Positions 4,327 to 11,202 of a DNA stretch of 12,872 nt are shown piece after piece; position 1 is the first letter of the stretch; the number at the start of each line of letters is the position of its first letter. Location: the IMG/VR virus record IMGVR_UViG_2737471845_000023. One strand, written 5' to 3'. This DNA comes from a virus. Taxonomy: Duplodnaviria > Heunggongvirae > Uroviricota > Caudoviricetes. The position numbers and the translations under genes were made by a program. Below the pieces are notes generated by a model, which saw only the letters and a program-made list of their open reading frames with translations, searched no databases and was not told the origin of the DNA.

Positions 4327-4560
4327 TGTTCATTCCACGGCCAAAAACAGAGAAAGGAAACGACAGAGGCCCAAAAGCTCGTTTTCAGCACCTGTCGTTT
4401 CCTTTCTTTTCAGGGGGTATTTTAAATAAAAACATTAAGTTACGACGAAGAAGAACGGAAATGCCTTAAACCGGAAAATTTTCATAAATAGCGAAAACCC
4501 GCGAGGTCGCCGCCCCGTAACCTGTCGGATCGCCGGAAAGGACCCGCAAAATGATAATAA
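4327..4560 (-). other. cos: lambda-type cos packaging site: cosB (Nu1-binding R1-R3 repeats), cosN (12-nt cohesive-end sequence at 4504-4515), cosQ-side flank
   Basis: Plus strand 4504-4515 reads AGGTCGCCGCCC, the reverse complement of the lambda left cohesive end GGGCGGCGACCT, with flanks cccgcg / cgtaacctgtcgg matching lambda. Three copies of the Nu1-binding motif CGTTTCC(T/G)TTCT lie between cosN and Nu1 (about 4347-4365 rev, 4394-4409 fwd, 4441-4460 rev). Confidence 0.9.
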
Positions 4561-4714
4561 TTATCATCTGCATGTCACAACGTGCATCTACGCCATCAAA
4601 CCACGTCAAATAATCAATTATGACGCAGATATCGTATTAATTGATCTGCATCAACTTAACGTAAAAACAACTTCAGACAATACAAATCAGCGACACTGAA
4701 TACGGGACAACCTC

Positions 4715-4948
4715 ATGTCAACGAAGAACAGAACCCGCAGAACAACAACCCGCAACATCCGCTTTCCTAACCAAATGATTGAACAAATTAACATCGCTCT
4801 TGAGCAAAAAGGGTCCGGGAATTTCTCAGCCTGGGTCATTGAAGCCTGCCGCCGGAGACTGTGCTCAGAAAAAAGAGTTTCTTCTGAAGCAAACAAAGAA
4901 AAGAGTGACATTACTGAATTGCTCAGAAAACAGGTCAGACCAGATTGA
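4715..4948 (+). CDS. small ribbon-helix-helix (Arc/MetJ/CopG-like) DNA-binding protein, 77 aa; probable YnfO-like cos-proximal ORF
   Basis: ATG ORF with Arg-rich N-terminus MSTKNRTRRTTTRNIRFP followed by a strand-helix-helix pattern (NIRFPNQMIEQINIALEQKG / NFSAWVIEACRRRL). An equivalent ORF is present at the lambda right end in the same position and orientation, as I recall it. SD is weak. Confidence 0.7.
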   Translation: MSTKNRTRRTTTRNIRFPNQMIEQINIALEQKGSGNFSAWVIEACRRRLCSEKRVSSEANKEKSDITELLRKQVRPD

Positions 4949-5005
4949 AGCAATTTAGATAATCGTGCAGACTACGCCCCCTCATATCACATGGAAGGTT
5001 TATCT

Positions 5006-5416
5006 ATGGATCAGGTAGTCATTTTTAAACAAATATTTGATAAAGTTCGAAACGATTTAAACTATCAATGGTTTTATTCTGAGCTAAAACGTCACAATGT
5101 CTCACATTACATTTACTATTTAGCCACAGAGAATGTTCATATTGTATTAAAAAATGATAATACAGTGTTATTAAAGGGCCTAAAAAACATTGTGTCTGTC
5201 AAATTTTCAAAGGATAGGCATCTTATAGAAACGACCTCTAATAAGCTGAAATCCAGAGAGATCACATTTCAGGAATACAGAAGAAACCTTGCTAAAGCAG
5301 GAGTTTTTCGGTGGGTTACAAATATCCACGAACAAAAAAGATATTACTATACCTTTGATAATTCATTACTATTTACTGAAAGCATCCAGAAAACTACACA
5401 GATCTTACCACGCTAA
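5006..5416 (+). CDS. ydfO: DUF1398-family protein YdfO-like, 136 aa (ORF-track start at 4991 is probably an N-terminal over-extension)
   Basis: [49 protein letters not shown]... recognised as Qin prophage YdfO. ATG at 5006 has GGAAGG about 8 nt upstream. AT-rich, low-GC moron-like composition. Confidence 0.85.
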
Positions 5417-5510
5417 ACCATAACGTCCGGCTTCTCTCACTCCTGAGCCGGACTGCATTGGTTTAATAAAAACCATCAACAATTGTGATTTAGATATTCG
5501 GAACCATTCA

Positions 5511-5540
5511 AATATAACAAAACCCCGTAAAAACGAGGTT
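5511..5540 (-). terminator. candidate intrinsic terminator downstream of gnsB
   Basis: Minus-strand RNA would form a 6-bp stem CCUCGU / ACGGGG (one G-U pair) with a U5 loop, followed by UUUUGUUAUAUUU. Confidence 0.45.
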
Positions 5541-5567
5541 TATGGATAAATTTTATTATTGAATACA

Positions 5568-5741
5568 TCAGATTAAATTAATCTTGACATCATAGCTTTC
5601 AAGACCCGTCATTTTTTCCCGTGCGGTAAACTGAATACTGGTAACTTCTTTCCCGGTCTTTTTCTTAAGTTCAATAATTTTTTTTGTTATATATTCAGAA
5701 ATATCTGCTTCTGCTTTTGTTTTTAAGTTTTCAATATTCAT
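5568..5741 (-). CDS. gnsB: GnsA/GnsB-family small protein, 57 aa
   Basis: ORF below the track cutoff, translated by hand: MNIENLKTKAEADISEYITKKIIELKKKTGKEVTSIQFTAREKMTGLESYDVKINLI. Matches E. coli GnsB (Qin) as I recall it. SD GAGGAA immediately upstream; an alternative ATG one codon upstream at 5744. Confidence 0.85.
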   Translation of the reverse strand: MNIENLKTKAEADISEYITKKIIELKKKTGKEVTSIQFTAREKMTGLESYDVKINLI

Positions 5742-5912
5742 CATTTCCTCTTTTAGTCTGTTATGACTTTCCAGTTACACAGTAAGTCGATTATATGGTG
5801 CAAACGTGTAAAAGATAAGATGAAACATCGCAATAATCAACATACGATAGTCTAAATTTTACACAAACAGACAAAGAAAATTTTCCTGAATTATCAATAC
5901 AATAGCATCAAA

Positions 5913-6143
5913 TCAACTCAAGAGCCTTATTGCTGCTTCCAGAATTTCTTCTGAAGTAACATGTCGATCCGCGGCTACATAAATGACTTTATGATCTCCG
6001 GTCAGAGATGGAAACCCTGCGGCCATTACAGTAAGGTGTGTTTTTTCGCCATTTGGATATTCACGCATGATGGTGTTAACTCCAGTCATCGCTGGCACTA
6101 CCACTGCAGGTTCTGAGTTAAAAAAAACTATGATTTTTTTCAT
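5913..6143 (-). CDS. small hypothetical protein, probably YnfN-like (76 aa from the ATG at 6143; a 51-aa version from the ATG at 6068 is also possible)
   Basis: ORF MKKIIVFFNSEPAVVVPAMTGVNTIMREYPNGEKTHLTVMAAGFPSLTGDHKVIYVAADRHVTSEEILEAAIRLLS. Position between gnsB and cspI matches ynfN in Qin, and the internal Met gives 51 aa, the size I recall for YnfN. No strong SD at either start. Confidence 0.6.
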   Translation of the reverse strand: MKKIIVFFNSEPAVVVPAMTGVNTIMREYPNGEKTHLTVMAAGFPSLTGDHKVIYVAADRHVTSEEILEAAIRLLS

Positions 6144-6185
6144 GATGTTACCGTAGTATGTGAGTATCCATCGAATAGATACCAA

Positions 6186-6208
6186 GCAAAAAAGCTCCCG
6201 AAGGAGCC
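6186..6208 (-). terminator. intrinsic terminator downstream of cspI (UUCG-tetraloop hairpin plus U-tract)
   Basis: Minus-strand RNA GGCUCC-UUCG-GGAGCU followed by UUUUUUGCUU. Confidence 0.6.
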
Positions 6209-6414
6209 TTCATTTTCACTTTTTTAAATCCAACGACAGACGGCTGGCATTTAAGTATTGTGAAATATTATCAAATGTAATCATCATTGATTTACAAAAG
6301 ATACATTTTGCCCCGAAAGGATTCATGTCAGAAACATCAAAAGATGATGTTCTATACTGGGAACCATGACAACACGGGCATCTAAAGTGAATATGGTTTG
6401 TAATATTGTCTACC

Positions 6415-6627
6415 TCAAAGCGCCACTACATGAACAGCGGCAGGACCTTTAGGTCCGTTCTCAATACCAAATTCAACTTCCTGATTCTCAGTTAATGTTT
6501 TGAAATCGTTGCTCTGAATTGCTGAGAAATGGACAAACACATCTTTGCTGCCATCTTTCGGCGTGATGAAACCAAAACCTTTTTCAGGGTTAAACCATTT
6601 CACTAAACCAGTCATTTTGTTAGACAT
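6415..6627 (-). CDS. cspI: cold-shock protein, CspA family (CspI), 70 aa
   Basis: [70 protein letters not shown] with the RNP1 motif KGFGFI and RNP2-like VFVHF; matches K-12 CspI as recalled. SD AAGGTAATAATTATG. Confidence 0.93.
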
Positions 6628-6990
6628 AATTATTACCTTTTGAAGAAATTAGCCCTTGGGCAGAATGGTCCGAAAAAAAATATCAGAGAGAAAAACCAAC
6701 AAGGAAATCTCAAGAGGTACAAATAATAAAATTATAACAATGACTGCTTCAGATAAATTTGTAACAAACCAGAACACCATTAACGCATGATTAACCACCC
6801 ATAGCAAGGATTACTTTTGTAAAGAAAAACACAGCAATGAAAGAATAGCTTTATTTATTAATAATAACGTGTCATTCTGATTAAGACCTTTTATCTTACC
6901 CTTAAGATTTCAGGAATTTTGGCTCATGGAAGAGTCCTTTTTATTTAAATTTTACATTCCGCGATGTAAATGTTCCGATTTAATATTACC

Positions 6991-8018: not shown

Positions 8019-8326
8019 ATATATTTATGATGAGGACGCTCGTGCTTATTGGCAGGATTTTCAATCTTAAAGGAGTACTGATGCTGCAGATAAGACTCAA
8101 CTTTTTCTGACAATTTTTCTGCTACTTCCAGGAAGACTTGCCGGACGCTCCTTCTGGCTGCTGCCTCATAAAACTCCAGCGCAGCTCCTTCAACACGGTC
8201 CATGGCGACATCCAGGTCAAAAATTTCACCGTCAAAGCGTTCTTTGTCCTGTAAGGCTACAGTTACCGTAACTTTATTCTCAAAATTACGGACTCCTTTC
8301 ACAACCAGTTCATAGTCTTGAGTCAT
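8015..8326 (-). CDS. ydfR: DUF1327-family protein YdfR-like, 103 aa, encoded between holin and endolysin
   Basis: MTQDYELVVKGVRNFENKVTVTVALQDKERFDGEIFDLDVAMDRVEGAALEFYEAAARRS...; strong SD AGGAGAG; stop overlaps the endolysin start (ATGA). Same size and position as K-12 YdfR. Confidence 0.85.
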
Positions 8327-8330
8327 TGGA

Positions 8331-8546
8331 TTACTCTCCTCTCGCAGCCTTACGCCTGTCTTCTTTAATCTTGAAATAAAGATTTGTCAGATACGTCAGC
8401 AGGCCAAAAACCAGGCTACCCAGCACACCGATTGCAGCCCACTGTGACGGAGTTACTTTATCGAGTAACTGCAATGCCCAGAAACCAGCATTACCCGCCG
8501 ATGTGCCATAGGCAACACCTGTTGTTAACTTATCCATTGATTTCAT
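8331..8546 (-). CDS. essQ: class II pinholin (S21-like) with a dual-start motif, 71 aa (ORF-track start at 8621 is an over-extension)
   Basis: [71 protein letters not shown]: two TM segments, the first Gly/Ala-rich (SAR-like), and a charged C-terminus. SD GGGTGAGGAT before the ATG at 8546. Met1 and Met4 give the antiholin/holin dual start known for S21. Confidence 0.88.
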
Positions 8547-8765
8547 ATCCTCACCCCGATGTACACGGATGGTGCAATATGTTTGAAAAGATCGGAGTCT
8601 ACGGGGTAGTTTTGACAGCACACGTTGTTCTCAACGGCGCTAAAAAAACATACACATTAAAAATGTGGGTAATTATTTTGAAAGAAAGTCATATATAAAA
8701 TAATAATACGAGAAATGTTTTCATATTTAGTGTACTGTATACGGCCATTTATACAGGAAAAGCCT

Positions 8766-8936
8766 ATGTCAGAACGTAAAAACTCAAAATCACGCCGTAA
8801 TTATCTCGTTAAATGTTCCTGCCCAAACTGCACCCAAGAGTCAGAACACAGTTTTTCAAGAGTACAAAAAGGTGCCCTTTTGATCTGCCCTCATTGCAAC
8901 AAAGTATTCCAGACAAATCTTAAAGCTGTAGCCTGA
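8766..8936 (+). CDS. small zinc-ribbon protein (CxxC...CxxC), 56 aa; possibly the Qin small protein YnfU
   Basis: MSERKNSKSRRNYLVKCSCPNCTQESEHSFSRVQKGALLICPHCNKVFQTNLKAVA with two CxxC pairs about 20 residues apart. SD AGGAAAA 7 nt before the ATG at 8766. On the strand opposite to the late operon. Confidence 0.55.
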   Translation: MSERKNSKSRRNYLVKCSCPNCTQESEHSFSRVQKGALLICPHCNKVFQTNLKAVA

Positions 8937-8990
8937 TTGATTTTATTAGTAACAAGTATTTTTTATATTTTAATAATATATTTAAAGCAG

Positions 8991-9016
8991 ATAATAAAAA
9001 ACCCGCCTGAGCGGGT
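8991..9016 (-). terminator. intrinsic terminator downstream of cspB (a weaker terminator for the plus strand as well)
   Basis: Stem ACCCGC-CTGA-GCGGGT at 9001-9016; on the minus strand it is followed by UUUUUUAUUAU; on the plus strand only UUUGAG follows. Confidence 0.6.
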
Positions 9017-9299
9017 TTGAGATTGTGGTGCTTTTTGTGGGAGTCATCCACTTACGCACTTTGTTTTGCCATGCCAGCAGTTAGCTTCTGCTGTAAAACT
9101 ATTCATGCAGCAAACCTGCACTTCACCACAATGGTTAGCATACTTTTCCTGATTAAGATTTTGCCAAATATGCTAGCCATTGTTTCATGTATTGGACCTC
9201 CTTACTTTTTATTAAAGAGATCCAATATTCACTACTCTGTCCGTATCTCTACTCAGGCATCAGCCTTCTTCGTTATCGTATACAGACGAGCGATGAATT

Positions 9300-9515
9300 T
9301 TAATCAGTAATGATGACATTTGCTGCTGCAGGACCTTTAGCACCACTCTCTATAGAGAAGGTAACCTTTTGACCTTCAAATAAGGTTCGATAATTATCAT
9401 TCTGAATCGCAGAAAAATGCACAAACACATCTTTACTACCATCAACAGGAGAAATAAAGCCGAAACCTTTATCAGCGTTAAACCATTTTACTAAACCAGT
9501 CATTTTATTTGACAT
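9300..9515 (-). CDS. cspB: cold-shock protein, CspA family (CspB), 71 aa
   Basis: [71 protein letters not shown]; matches K-12 CspB as recalled. SD AAGGAA. Confidence 0.93.
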
Positions 9516-9815
9516 TCTACATTCCTTAACTTGAGCCTTTCGGCATAAATGGTTTGCATAACAGAAACGACTTCGTACTTAATTGGAGAGACTCAAAGAA
9601 GGAATAAGTGAATAACACCTGAAATGAGAACTGCTTTAGTAAACTACTTCGTATATCGTCTGTTCTTCAAACCGACGCAATCATTAACGCATAGTTGAAC
9701 ATATGAAGCAATGTTTATTTTAGACATCCAGCCATCTTCAACCCCATCAAAAAACTATAGCTTTCTTCAGGAACGTGTGTATAGTGCGCCAAGTTATCAG
9801 TATTAAGGAATTTTT

Positions 9816-10028
9816 TTGTCCCGTAAAATGACAGGAATTGTCAAAACCTTTGACGGCAAAAGCGGCAAGGGTCTTATCACCCCATCCGATGGTCGTATCG
9901 ATGTCCAGCTTCATGTCTCAGCGCTCAATCTCCGCGATGCAGAAGAAATTACCACCGGATTACGCGTGGAATTTTGCCGGATAAATGGTCTGCGTGGCCC
10001 TTCAGCTGCCAATGTTTACCTTTCATGA
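9816..10028 (+). CDS. cspF: CspF/CspH-type divergent cold-shock-domain protein, 70 aa, TTG start
   Basis: [70 protein letters not shown]: cold-shock-domain fold with a degenerate RNP1 motif, as in CspF/CspH. TTG at 9816 with AAGGAA 7 nt upstream. Divergent from cspB as in Qin. I cannot separate CspF from CspH by memory. Confidence 0.85.
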
Positions 10029-10082
10029 GCTATATTAAAGCTTTAATTTCAGGCCCCATCGGATCACACATGGAGAGTTTTT

Positions 10083-10172
10083 ATGAATAACCCCGTCTGT
10101 CTTGATGACTGGTTGATTGGCTTTAAAAGCTTATGCTGTACTTTGGCCGTAATAGCTCTGCTAATAATATAA
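10083..10172 (+). CDS. candidate 29-aa hydrophobic small protein (unannotated)
   Basis: ATG at 10083 preceded by GGAGAG at 5-nt spacing; [29 protein letters not shown] with one predicted TM segment; followed by the bidirectional terminator at 10321-10354. Below the ORF-track cutoff. Prediction only. Confidence 0.3.
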
Positions 10173-10317
10173 TAAGCAGACTCATTGTGTTTAGGGACAT
10201 TGTACTGGAAGAAAACATTTTAAACATCAGGCAAATAACCAAGTCACCAGCTAAATAATAAGTTAACAGACATGAGTCCCGGGATGAGATTCAACATTAC
10301 CATTGCCCCATTTAAAG

Positions 10318-10354
10318 CACAAAACCCGCTCATCAGCGGGTTTTCTACTTTTTC
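10318..10354. terminator. bidirectional intrinsic terminator: tR' for the short pR' leader on the minus strand and the terminator for cspF-side transcripts on the plus strand
   Basis: Stem CCCGCT-CATC-AGCGGG at 10325-10340, flanked by TTTTCTACTTTTTC on the plus strand and by UUUUGUGCUUU on the minus strand. Confidence 0.7.
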
Positions 10355-10376
10355 TTAACGTCGGGTATACAAAGCC

Positions 10377-10418
10377 CATCGTTGAAAAAATTTTATCCAT
10401 ATTTTTTGAAAAATGCAA
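10377..10418 (-). promoter_or_regulatory. late promoter pR' with a sigma70-dependent promoter-proximal pause element (Q engagement region)
   Basis: On the minus strand, 32 nt after the Q stop: TTGCAT (-35), 17-nt spacer, TAAAAT (-10), then ttttttC-AACGAT-GGG. The -10-like AACGAT just after the predicted start and the CAACGATGGG string match the lambda pR' initial transcribed region as I recall it. tR' follows about 60 nt downstream. Confidence 0.7.
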
Positions 10419-10449
10419 ACATCATGTCGCCATCTTCAGCAAAAATCAT

Positions 10450-11202
10450 TTATCTCGTCACCTTCCTCAATTGCGCTTCCGCGTATGCTTCTTCCTGCCA
10501 GCACTTTGTTACCAGTTTACCAATGACGTCCGCATACCCCTTATACCACTGATAATCGGTCAGGTCTGGTACCAGCTTCTGGACATGACGTCGTGCCAGC
10601 GTGGTCGGTAAACGACTAAACCGGTTTCCATTACAACGCCCACAAATCTTATATACCGGTACGCCATGAAACCGGGTTCTTTTTTCATCCAGAACAATCC
10701 CTTTACCCTTACACCCTCTGCACGCTGTGCTGGCTTCGCCCTTACCATGGCAATGCTGACATAGTTCCTTCACCCATTCTTCCTTGATTACAGATTCCCC
10801 GCGTCTGTAGTGTTTCACCACTTCGCGCAATACATTATAAAATCCCGTACCTGAACAATGCTCACAGCGAGCCTTACTTGCCGCAGACCTGGAGTAATCA
10901 GCAAAGGCAAAACTCACGAGGTAAGGAATAATCTGTAACCGGATTTCTTCACTCAATTTGTTCAATGTCGGGTTATCCAGTGCCATCGCGTAATTTAGCA
11001 GGCCTTCAATCGCAAACTGAGGGTCCTGAACACCAACTTTTGCCAGAAATAAGGCCAACCCAAGTGGTGCTTTCGACTGCACCATCCCCTGCGCTGCCAT
11101 TACATCCGTAATTGTTAAACAACCGGTGCCTGTCGCTGGAGCGTCATCGCTCAATTTTGGAGATTTTGGGGAGTAATATTTTGGTAAGGCTTCAAGGTTC
11201 AT
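10450..11202 (-). CDS. quuQ: late-gene antiterminator Q (phage 82/21 QuuQ type, multiple CxxC zinc motifs), 250 aa
   Basis: MNLEALPKYYSPKSPKLSDD...CEHCSGTGF...CQHCHGKGEASTACRGCKGKG...CGRCNGNRF. SD GGAGAA before the ATG at 11202; the ORF-track start at 11232 adds 10 residues. Sits immediately upstream of pR' and downstream of ydfU, as in Qin. Confidence 0.88.
   Translation of the reverse strand: MNLEALPKYYSPKSPKLSDDAPATGTGCLTITDVMAAQGMVQSKAPLGLALFLAKVGVQDPQFAIEGLLNYAMALDNPTLNKLSEEIRLQIIPYLVSFAFADYSRSAASKARCEHCSGTGFYNVLREVVKHYRRGESVIKEEWVKELCQHCHGKGEASTACRGCKGKGIVLDEKRTRFHGVPVYKICGRCNGNRFSRLPTTLARRHVQKLVPDLTDYQWYKGYADVIGKLVTKCWQEEAYAEAQLRKVTR

Follow-up and report, generated by a model that had tools for sequence, protein, structure and literature searches.

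One question raised by the late region of Qin-type lambdoid prophages of Escherichia coli is why two divergent cold-shock genes, cspB and cspF, lie between the late promoter pR', with its terminator tR', and the lysis genes. The stretch analysed here (hereafter the window) comprises 12,872 nucleotides (nt) of a Caudoviricetes virus (IMG/VR record IMGVR_UViG_2737471845_000023) and is the late region of such a prophage, with the late genes on the minus strand. The original prediction, made from the sequence alone, raised the possibility that these cold-shock proteins support late read-through or translation at low temperature. We consider it likely that the csp pair is instead part of a self-contained cargo cassette (moron) of about 1.5 kb, which has host-type signals and occupies the slot of the Shiga-toxin (stx) genes, and that it is not a helper of late transcription. 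This reading is drawn from the mosaic boundary at tR', the dispensability of cspF in phage Tritos, the presence of the unit outside late operons and the base composition.

Location of the csp pair

The minus-strand gene order of the window, as obtained from the listing of open reading frames (ORFs) and Pfam scans, is DUF968 protein (ydfU), Q, cspF (plus strand), cspB, ynfU (plus strand) and a P21-type holin, and it continues with ydfR (DUF1327 protein), lysozyme, an Rz-like protein, cspI, gnsB, nu1, large terminase and portal. Downstream of Q and pR', the lysis and morphogenesis genes (holin, DUF1327 protein, lysozyme, Rz-like protein, nu1, terminase, portal) share the minus strand. Identical genes in identical order are annotated in the genome of E. 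coli K-12 MG1655 as part of the cryptic prophage Qin, with a constant coordinate offset to the window. The Pfam matches and this offset confirmed the divergent pair between pR'/tR' and the lysis genes, at or near the positions originally given (9300-10028). The features of the interval and of its two borders are the following:

10450-11202, minus strand: late antiterminator gene Q (ydfT/quuQ type, 250 amino acids; Pfam PF03589 Antiterm, E 4e-54; ydfT in K-12)
10390-10418, minus strand: pR'-like late promoter (consensus scan; TTGCAT at 10418-10413, 17-nt spacer, TAAAAT at 10395-10390)
10317-10344, minus strand: tR' intrinsic terminator, GC-rich hairpin 10344-10321 followed by UUUUGUGC (fold, Term-seq and conservation)
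10083-10172, plus strand: ynfS, small ORF of 29 amino acids, antisense to late transcription (K-12 annotation, offset 1960)
9816-10028, plus strand: cspF, degenerate CSD protein, antisense to late transcription (Pfam CSD, E 5.6e-22; K-12 cspF)
9516-9676, minus strand: 5' untranslated region (5'UTR) of cspB, a cspA-type cold box/thermosensor leader (Rfam RF01766)
9300-9515, minus strand: cspB, canonical CspA-family gene, sense to late transcription (Pfam CSD, E 9.8e-32; K-12 cspB)
9187-9232, minus strand: 18-bp hairpin at the main in vivo 3' end of cspB (fold of -18.6 kcal/mol, z -5.6; Term-seq)
9019-9178, minus strand: conserved structured non-coding RNA of 160 nt with five helices (covariation, covariance model R1)
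8999-9018, both strands: intrinsic terminator separating ynfU from the cspB unit (scan of the minus strand: 8 pairs and UUUUUUAUUAU; -12.8 kcal/mol, z -4.7)
8766-8936, plus strand: ynfU, zinc-ribbon protein of 56 amino acids, convergent with cspB and antisense to late transcription (Pfam PF23499 YnfU, E 6e-31; K-12 annotation)
8331-8546, minus strand: holin gene (essQ type), the first lysis gene (Pfam PF04971, E 1e-33; K-12 essQ)

The gene upstream of this interval is labelled as antitermination protein Q in the annotation of phage PhiR42_1. The csp pair of Qin is already known and forms part of the standard annotation; since the arrangement is annotated in K-12 and found in phages, the observation is real but not new.

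Late promoter, terminator and mosaic boundary

The promoter is sigma-70-like and lies 32 nt beyond the stop codon of Q at 10450. Its predicted start is at about 10383, 1837 nt before the holin start at 8546, in agreement with the start and the 1.8 kb first estimated. The predicted 79-nt pR'-tR' RNA folds with -30.4 kcal/mol (z -4.7) and has a U-tract after the hairpin. Term-seq of K-12 detected a 3' end at 1642356 on the minus strand in all three conditions (Adams et al. 2021, PMC7815308, supplementary file 1). Coordinate mapping places this end at window 10317, just past the tR' hairpin, so that the pR'/tR' assignment is well supported, the start being a prediction. The predicted transcript from pR' to tR' has 67 nt (10383 to 10317, minus strand), with a 3' end that matches the K-12 in vivo end. 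Since the tR' hairpin also scored as a plus-strand terminator in the scan, it could serve as such for cspF/ynfS. Another minus-strand 3' end of the K-12 Term-seq data, found in one condition, corresponds to window 10149; it lies past the hairpin CTGCTTATTATATTATTAGCAG, beyond tR', on the strand antisense to ynfS, and suggests that tR' is read through to some extent in the cryptic prophage.

The sequences of phages SfV and mEp460, of the stx1 phage Lys8385Vzw and of 17 Stx2c phages were matched by Megablast only at window 10321-10698, which comprises the 3' part of Q, pR' and tR'. The pR' block is conserved in the alignment with SfV, mEp460 and Lys8385Vzw. Conservation with the csp-less phages runs through the tR' hairpin and stops at 10321, with unrelated sequence straight after. 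Downstream of the shared Q/pR'/tR' are orf47/48 in SfV, a DNA methylase gene in mEp460, stxAB in the stx1 phage Lys8385Vzw and stx2c in the Stx2c phages. This indicates that the antitermination cassette works in front of varied genes, and without csp genes. In phage Tritos cspB is present and cspF is absent.

The unit formed by cspF, cspB, the structured RNA and ynfU was also located, by a search for the motif behind cspB, in Kosakonia, Enterobacter, Phytobacter, Kluyvera, Superficieibacter, Pseudescherichia and Raoultella. The Kosakonia and Enterobacter copies, whose surroundings were inspected, are flanked by umuC or umuDC on one side and by genes for a SRAP peptidase or AcrB on the other. 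No homologues of Q or of the lysis genes were found in the loci of these other genera, save for weak holin/lysozyme matches in that of Superficieibacter. Among phage records, PHB10 has the csp pair between umuDC and the integrase gene, and the 108-kb phage Cyrano has cspB and the RNA between the DNA polymerase gene and hicAB. The gene order of the PHB10 record (L009, 1858-8228), namely umuD, umuC, ynfU-side, cspB, cspF and SRAP, equals that of the Enterobacter chromosome (L014); the cassette may be cargo or an attachment-site-proximal region in PHB10, or host DNA flanking the prophage.

The G+C content is 37-41% across 8400-10200, whereas the lysis genes have 44-49%, Q and ydfU 48-54% and the head genes 53-59%; the cspI/gnsB region displays the same drop. 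All the phage copies, which were examined in 120 viral contigs, have one orientation and one junction pair, and the predominance of the window's architecture among these contigs is consistent with one capture and subsequent spread. The marks of a moron according to Hendrix and colleagues, which are a slot filled differently in relatives, an own promoter and terminator and a deviant base composition, are all present here.

CspB, CspF and the cold-type signals

The full-length CSD profile (PF00313, about 65 residues, cut-off 27 bits) gave 109 bits for CspB, 78 for CspF and 108 for CspI. CspB and CspI retain the RNP1 (KGFGFI) and RNP2 (VFVHF) motifs. CspF, when aligned to the CspA (2l15) and CspE structures, fails in both, with SGKGLI instead of KGFGFI and VQLHV instead of VFVHF, and residues W11, F18, F20, F31 and F34 of CspA are all replaced. 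The proposal that CspF has a degenerate RNP1 and is unlikely to bind RNA in the canonical way was thereby upheld and extends to RNP2. It is known that CspF has three aromatic residues versus about eight in other Csps (PMC6719143), and that overproduced CspB and CspF have little effect on two known Csp-responsive mRNAs (PMC11648934). The degeneracy of both motifs agrees with the former report and with the null effect of overproduced CspF in the latter.

A match to the entire cspA thermoregulator model RF01766 was obtained at 9284-9676 (cspB leader plus coding region) with 158.8 bits, and that of cspI reached 112.8 bits (gathering score of 78). These full-length matches indicate that cspB and cspI each carry their own cold-type leader. 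The same model found no match upstream of cspF. The promoter of cspB itself is just upstream of the leader start at about 9676, and promoters of cspF and ynfU were predicted by scan only. Rho-dependent termination within the cspB 5'UTR or ORF has been described at 37°C in K-12 (Adams et al., PMC7815308), and the Rho-dependent 3' end in question corresponds to window 9595, inside the leader. Both cspB and cspI are cold-inducible and their mutants lose in long-term stationary-phase competition, with no effect in cspF mutants (PMC7406224).

The 3' end of the cspB mRNA

In the K-12 Term-seq data, the minus-strand 3' ends 1641226 and 1641224 (scores from 0.6 to 2.5 million) correspond to window 9187 and 9185, at the base of the 18-bp hairpin. 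The 3' end of the hairpin, at 9187, is 113 nt past cspB, and the hairpin 9232-9187 is the dominant, real end of the cspB mRNA at 37°C in K-12. The cspB terminator had been placed originally at 8991-9016; the hairpin there is 8999-9018, which is 280 nt beyond the cspB stop codon and on paper a good minus-strand terminator. At this hairpin the K-12 Term-seq data include a plus-strand 3' end only (window 9021), which fits ynfU, and list none on the minus strand. Taken together, the ends at 9187/9185 on the minus strand and at 9021 on the plus strand show a bidirectional terminator at 8999-9018, with the cspB mRNA ending mainly elsewhere at 37°C. Late transcripts were described initially as crossing cspF in antisense, cspB in sense and the cspB terminator; the anatomy and the presence of at least one intrinsic terminator stand, and the identity of the terminator had to be corrected.

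One 11-codon ORF with a perfect Shine-Dalgarno sequence (9188-9153, minus strand) was rejected as a gene. Its Shine-Dalgarno sequence is the 3' arm of the 18-bp hairpin, the in vivo RNA 3' end falls within its ATG, and it is not conserved outside Escherichia.

A structured RNA downstream of cspB

Window 9019-9178 is more conserved than the neighbouring sequence across phages and genera and does not contain a conserved reading frame. An alignment of 17 sequences yielded a five-helix consensus with 33 pairs, 12 of which have compensatory changes. Pairing was found in 96.6% of the cells, compared with 23-59% in slid-partner controls, and the observed values were reached by none of 500 shuffles on four of five measures and by a single one on the fifth. 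The core of helix 4 and one unpaired motif are conserved by construction, because the search pattern fixed both. The frequent G:U pairs fit only the cspB-sense strand. A 97-residue ORF on the plus strand (9017-9310), annotated as hypothetical in PhiR42_1, was rejected, since insertions and deletions in Cyrano and PHB10 break the frame while the nucleotides and base pairs are kept.

The element is present in nine enterobacterial genera and several phages. Covariance model R1 gave one match per locus, always 3' of cspB; a search behind cspI, in the window and in K-12 Qin, revealed no second copy. The RNA follows cspB even without cspF and ynfU, as occurs in Cyrano and in five viral contigs with cspB and the RNA only. 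A permissive search of 8940-9330 against Rfam 15 gave nothing credible (matches of at most 22.5 bits to unrelated families, far below the gathering scores), and 13 of the 15 sub-threshold matches overlap the terminator hairpin. No match was found in a literature search for the core sequence of the element. Hence, the RNA behind cspB may be new, with a processed RNA of the 3' untranslated region (3'UTR) or a stability element as the obvious candidates for what it could be. It is the item worth following from this analysis, since it could be a new regulator derived from the 3'UTR, or a new stability element, that takes part in the cold-shock response of E. coli.

Proposed mechanism

The cassette would consist of cspF (leftward), cspB (rightward), the structured RNA and ynfU (leftward), located between Q and the holin gene. 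In a lysogen it would be expressed from its own signals in the cold and in long-term stationary phase, to the benefit of the host, a benefit suggested by the loss of stationary-phase competition in cspB and cspI mutants (PMC7406224). The late promoter pR' would fire constitutively in the lysogen and its transcripts would stop at tR', as the K-12 3' end and the parallel with Stx phages suggest. RNA polymerase modified by a lambda-type Q resists terminators and Rho by itself, as is known for lambda and phage 82. After induction, the Q-modified polymerase would pass tR', the Rho site in the cspB leader, the hairpin at 9187 and the 8999-9018 terminator, and would enter the lysis genes. As a by-product of this read-through, cspB would be transcribed in sense and cspF, ynfS and ynfU in antisense. 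Read-through by Q probably co-expresses cspB in lytic growth, by analogy with stx. Q-dependent read-through is not expected in the cryptic prophage of K-12.

Some points weigh against the cargo reading. Read-through across the cassette is inferred by analogy with the Q proteins of lambda, phage 82 and Stx phages. All the phage copies observed have cspB in the sense direction relative to pR', and the late region of one phage holds three csp genes; selection for the synthesis of Csp proteins in lytic growth would also agree with these two findings. Orientation says little either way, since all the phage copies look like one capture event. The comparison with the csp-less phages is one of sequence. 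Literature searches on cold-shock proteins with lambdoid morons and on quuQ/ydfT/essQ yielded nothing on this locus, and no study of the role of csp genes during lytic growth of Qin-type phages came to light.

Alternative explanations

One important alternative is that CspB, perhaps with CspI, acts as an RNA chaperone or antiterminator that aids the completion or translation of the late transcript of about 25 kb in the cold, the cassette thus being part of the late programme. We judge this unlikely. The sense orientation of cspB in all the phage copies and the three csp genes in the late region of one phage would fit it, as would the csp cargo found repeatedly in unrelated phages (those of Morganella, Lactococcus, Pasteurella and Acinetobacter). 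CspA-family proteins have been reported to affect expression through antitermination (PMC11228462), and read-through by Q would bypass the Rho-dependent attenuation in the cspB leader described in K-12 (PMC7815308). However, the same Q/pR'/tR' serves phages without csp genes, so that SfV, mEp460 and the stx1 and stx2c phages, together with Tritos, lend the helper role no comparative support. The Q-modified polymerase of lambda and phage 82 is terminator-resistant unaided. The cassette predates its phage location and is found elsewhere as an autonomous unit outside late operons, and of the four genes of the interval only cspB is sense, cspF, ynfS and ynfU being antisense. Overproduced CspB and CspF, moreover, barely affected two Csp-responsive mRNAs (PMC11648934). 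The function originally proposed for the pair thus appears speculative and improbable, being disfavoured by the comparison of sequences and not needed by the Q mechanism. The cassette may still confer on the phage a conditional benefit at low temperature.

It is also conceivable, with a distinctly lower probability, that the cassette is a neutral hitch-hiker captured once by illegitimate recombination and kept since the interval between Q and the holin gene tolerates insertions, without benefit to host or phage. The single orientation and junction pair of all the phage copies, the tolerated loss of cspF in Tritos and the lack of phenotype of the cspF knockout in long-term stationary phase (PMC7406224) would be accounted for in this way. 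Against it, conservation across genera extends to the ORFs, to the thermosensor leader and to the structured RNA, which shows compensatory changes; knockouts of cspB and cspI lose in competition (PMC7406224), and the cassette is carried by about 30% of the complete E. coli genomes with at least 99% identity in 1227 records.

The least probable alternative, to which we give very little weight, is that the functional core consists of cspB and the 160-nt RNA, which would either be cut out of the 3' region of cspB or arise only through read-through, and would serve as a small regulatory RNA or stabilise the transcript in cis, so that the link to the late operon could matter through the RNA rather than the proteins; the strong covariation, the persistence of the RNA behind cspB without cspF and ynfU (Cyrano and five viral contigs) and the position of the main cspB 3' end 8 nt 5' of the element, as expected if processing separates the two, are in its favour, but the K-12 Term-seq data at 37°C list no minus-strand 3' end for an RNA ending at the 8999-9018 terminator and the helix 4 core and one single-stranded motif were fixed by the search pattern.

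A more far-reaching idea is that cspB and the 160-nt RNA form an undescribed cold-linked RNA module whose full transcript is made at 37°C upon induction, temperature tuning the timing of lysis or the late output. This is very improbable in our opinion. Induction would be the one condition for a full cspB-plus-RNA transcript at 37°C because the Q-modified polymerase bypasses the Rho site of the leader and the 3' signals, and, if the idea were true, lytic growth would be linked to the activity of the Csp proteins or of the RNA.

Distribution and neighbouring features

At least 80% of window 8300-10700 was found in 1616 of 5426 complete E. coli genomes, the matches at high identity being those counted above. 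Strains of the IAI1 type match the whole window at 99.9%, and phage PhiR42_1 is 100% identical to window 8300-10700. The csp module is also present in phages 2H10, HannyBb, PhiR63_1 and Tritos (five sequenced phages including PhiR42_1), and the architecture of the window prevails among the 120 viral contigs. The match to IAI1-type genomes ends at 12642, and the final 230 nt (12643-12872) carry a minus-strand ORF at 12673-12852; in terms of sequence, this end of homology points to a strain-specific junction beyond ydfU.

Phages PhiR63_1 (L004, 3229-5343) and HannyBb (L002, same region) have a fragment like that of the window, with the 3' end of Q, pR' and tR', next to cspF. This is followed by 1.7 kb of extra sequence, which includes a 94-residue ORF with a hydrophobic C-terminal stretch, and by a second, different Q with a variant pR', resulting in two tandem late-promoter modules. 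No tRNA genes were found in the extra 1.7 kb of either phage, and an Rfam search of the region detected only the cspB leader.

Beyond the features considered in the original prediction, the interval holds ynfU, ynfS and the structured RNA, and the late region holds a third csp gene:

6388-6773 (gene at 6415-6627), minus strand: cspI with its own cspA-type leader (Rfam RF01766, 112.8 bits; Pfam CSD, E 1.6e-31; K-12 cspI)

This gene lies in a second AT-rich cargo block (4500-6900, 33-39% G+C), from Rz to nu1, together with gnsB, ydfO and ynfO, and constitutes a second csp moron that separates Rz from the packaging genes.

Comparison with known systems

Qin of K-12 (ydfT, ynfS, cspF, cspB, ynfU, essQ, ydfR, rrrQ, rzpQ, cspI, gnsB) is the same element as the window. 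Packaging and head genes (nu1, terminase, portal) are complete in the window, in strain IAI1 and in phage PhiR42_1, whereas Qin of K-12 is truncated there. With regard to the cspA thermoregulator RF01766, the leaders and coding regions of cspB and cspI match well above the gathering score. The 3' terminator section of the model is unmatched in cspB, which has instead a 113-nt 3' region ending in a different hairpin.

The chromosomal cspH/cspG locus of E. coli (cspH, cspG, ymcF, ymcE, gnsA) also contains a divergent pair of a Csp with degenerate RNP motifs and a cold-inducible Csp. Its identity to window 9401-10018, the intergenic region included, is about 77%, and the gene content downstream of cspG mirrors that downstream of cspI in Qin (ymcF/ynfQ, gnsA/gnsB). 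Unlike the pair of the window, it has no Q or lysis genes flanking it and adjoins IS1D. The chromosomal block cspG-ymcF-ymcE-gnsA resembles a paralogous copy of the cspI block, beside cspH and IS1D.

Lambda 6S RNA and StxS are short constitutive transcripts from pR' to tR', and the predicted 67-nt RNA of Qin, whose start is a prediction only, is of the same kind and could be the Qin-type counterpart of either. In a report on Stx phages, StxS is described as a by-product of transcription from pR' to tR', and pR' as constitutive and terminated in lysogens (PMC7547250). The likeness of the 67-nt RNA to StxS is one of position and not of compared sequence.

Stx phages carry stx1 or stx2 in the same slot between Q/pR'/tR' and the holin gene, with a homologous block about 86% identical. 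Both toxin genes of the annotated stx1 phage read in the same direction as pR', whereas in the Qin type cspB alone is sense and has a strong, independent cold-regulated leader. Co-transcription of stx with the late genes after induction is reported in two papers (PMC8065619, PMC6266700). From this parallel, cspB RNA would be expected at 37°C after prophage induction, as its Rho-dependent attenuation would be bypassed. In the cargo reading, the position of the csp genes within the late unit would reflect a cargo hot spot shared with the Shiga-toxin genes and not a built-in antitermination helper.

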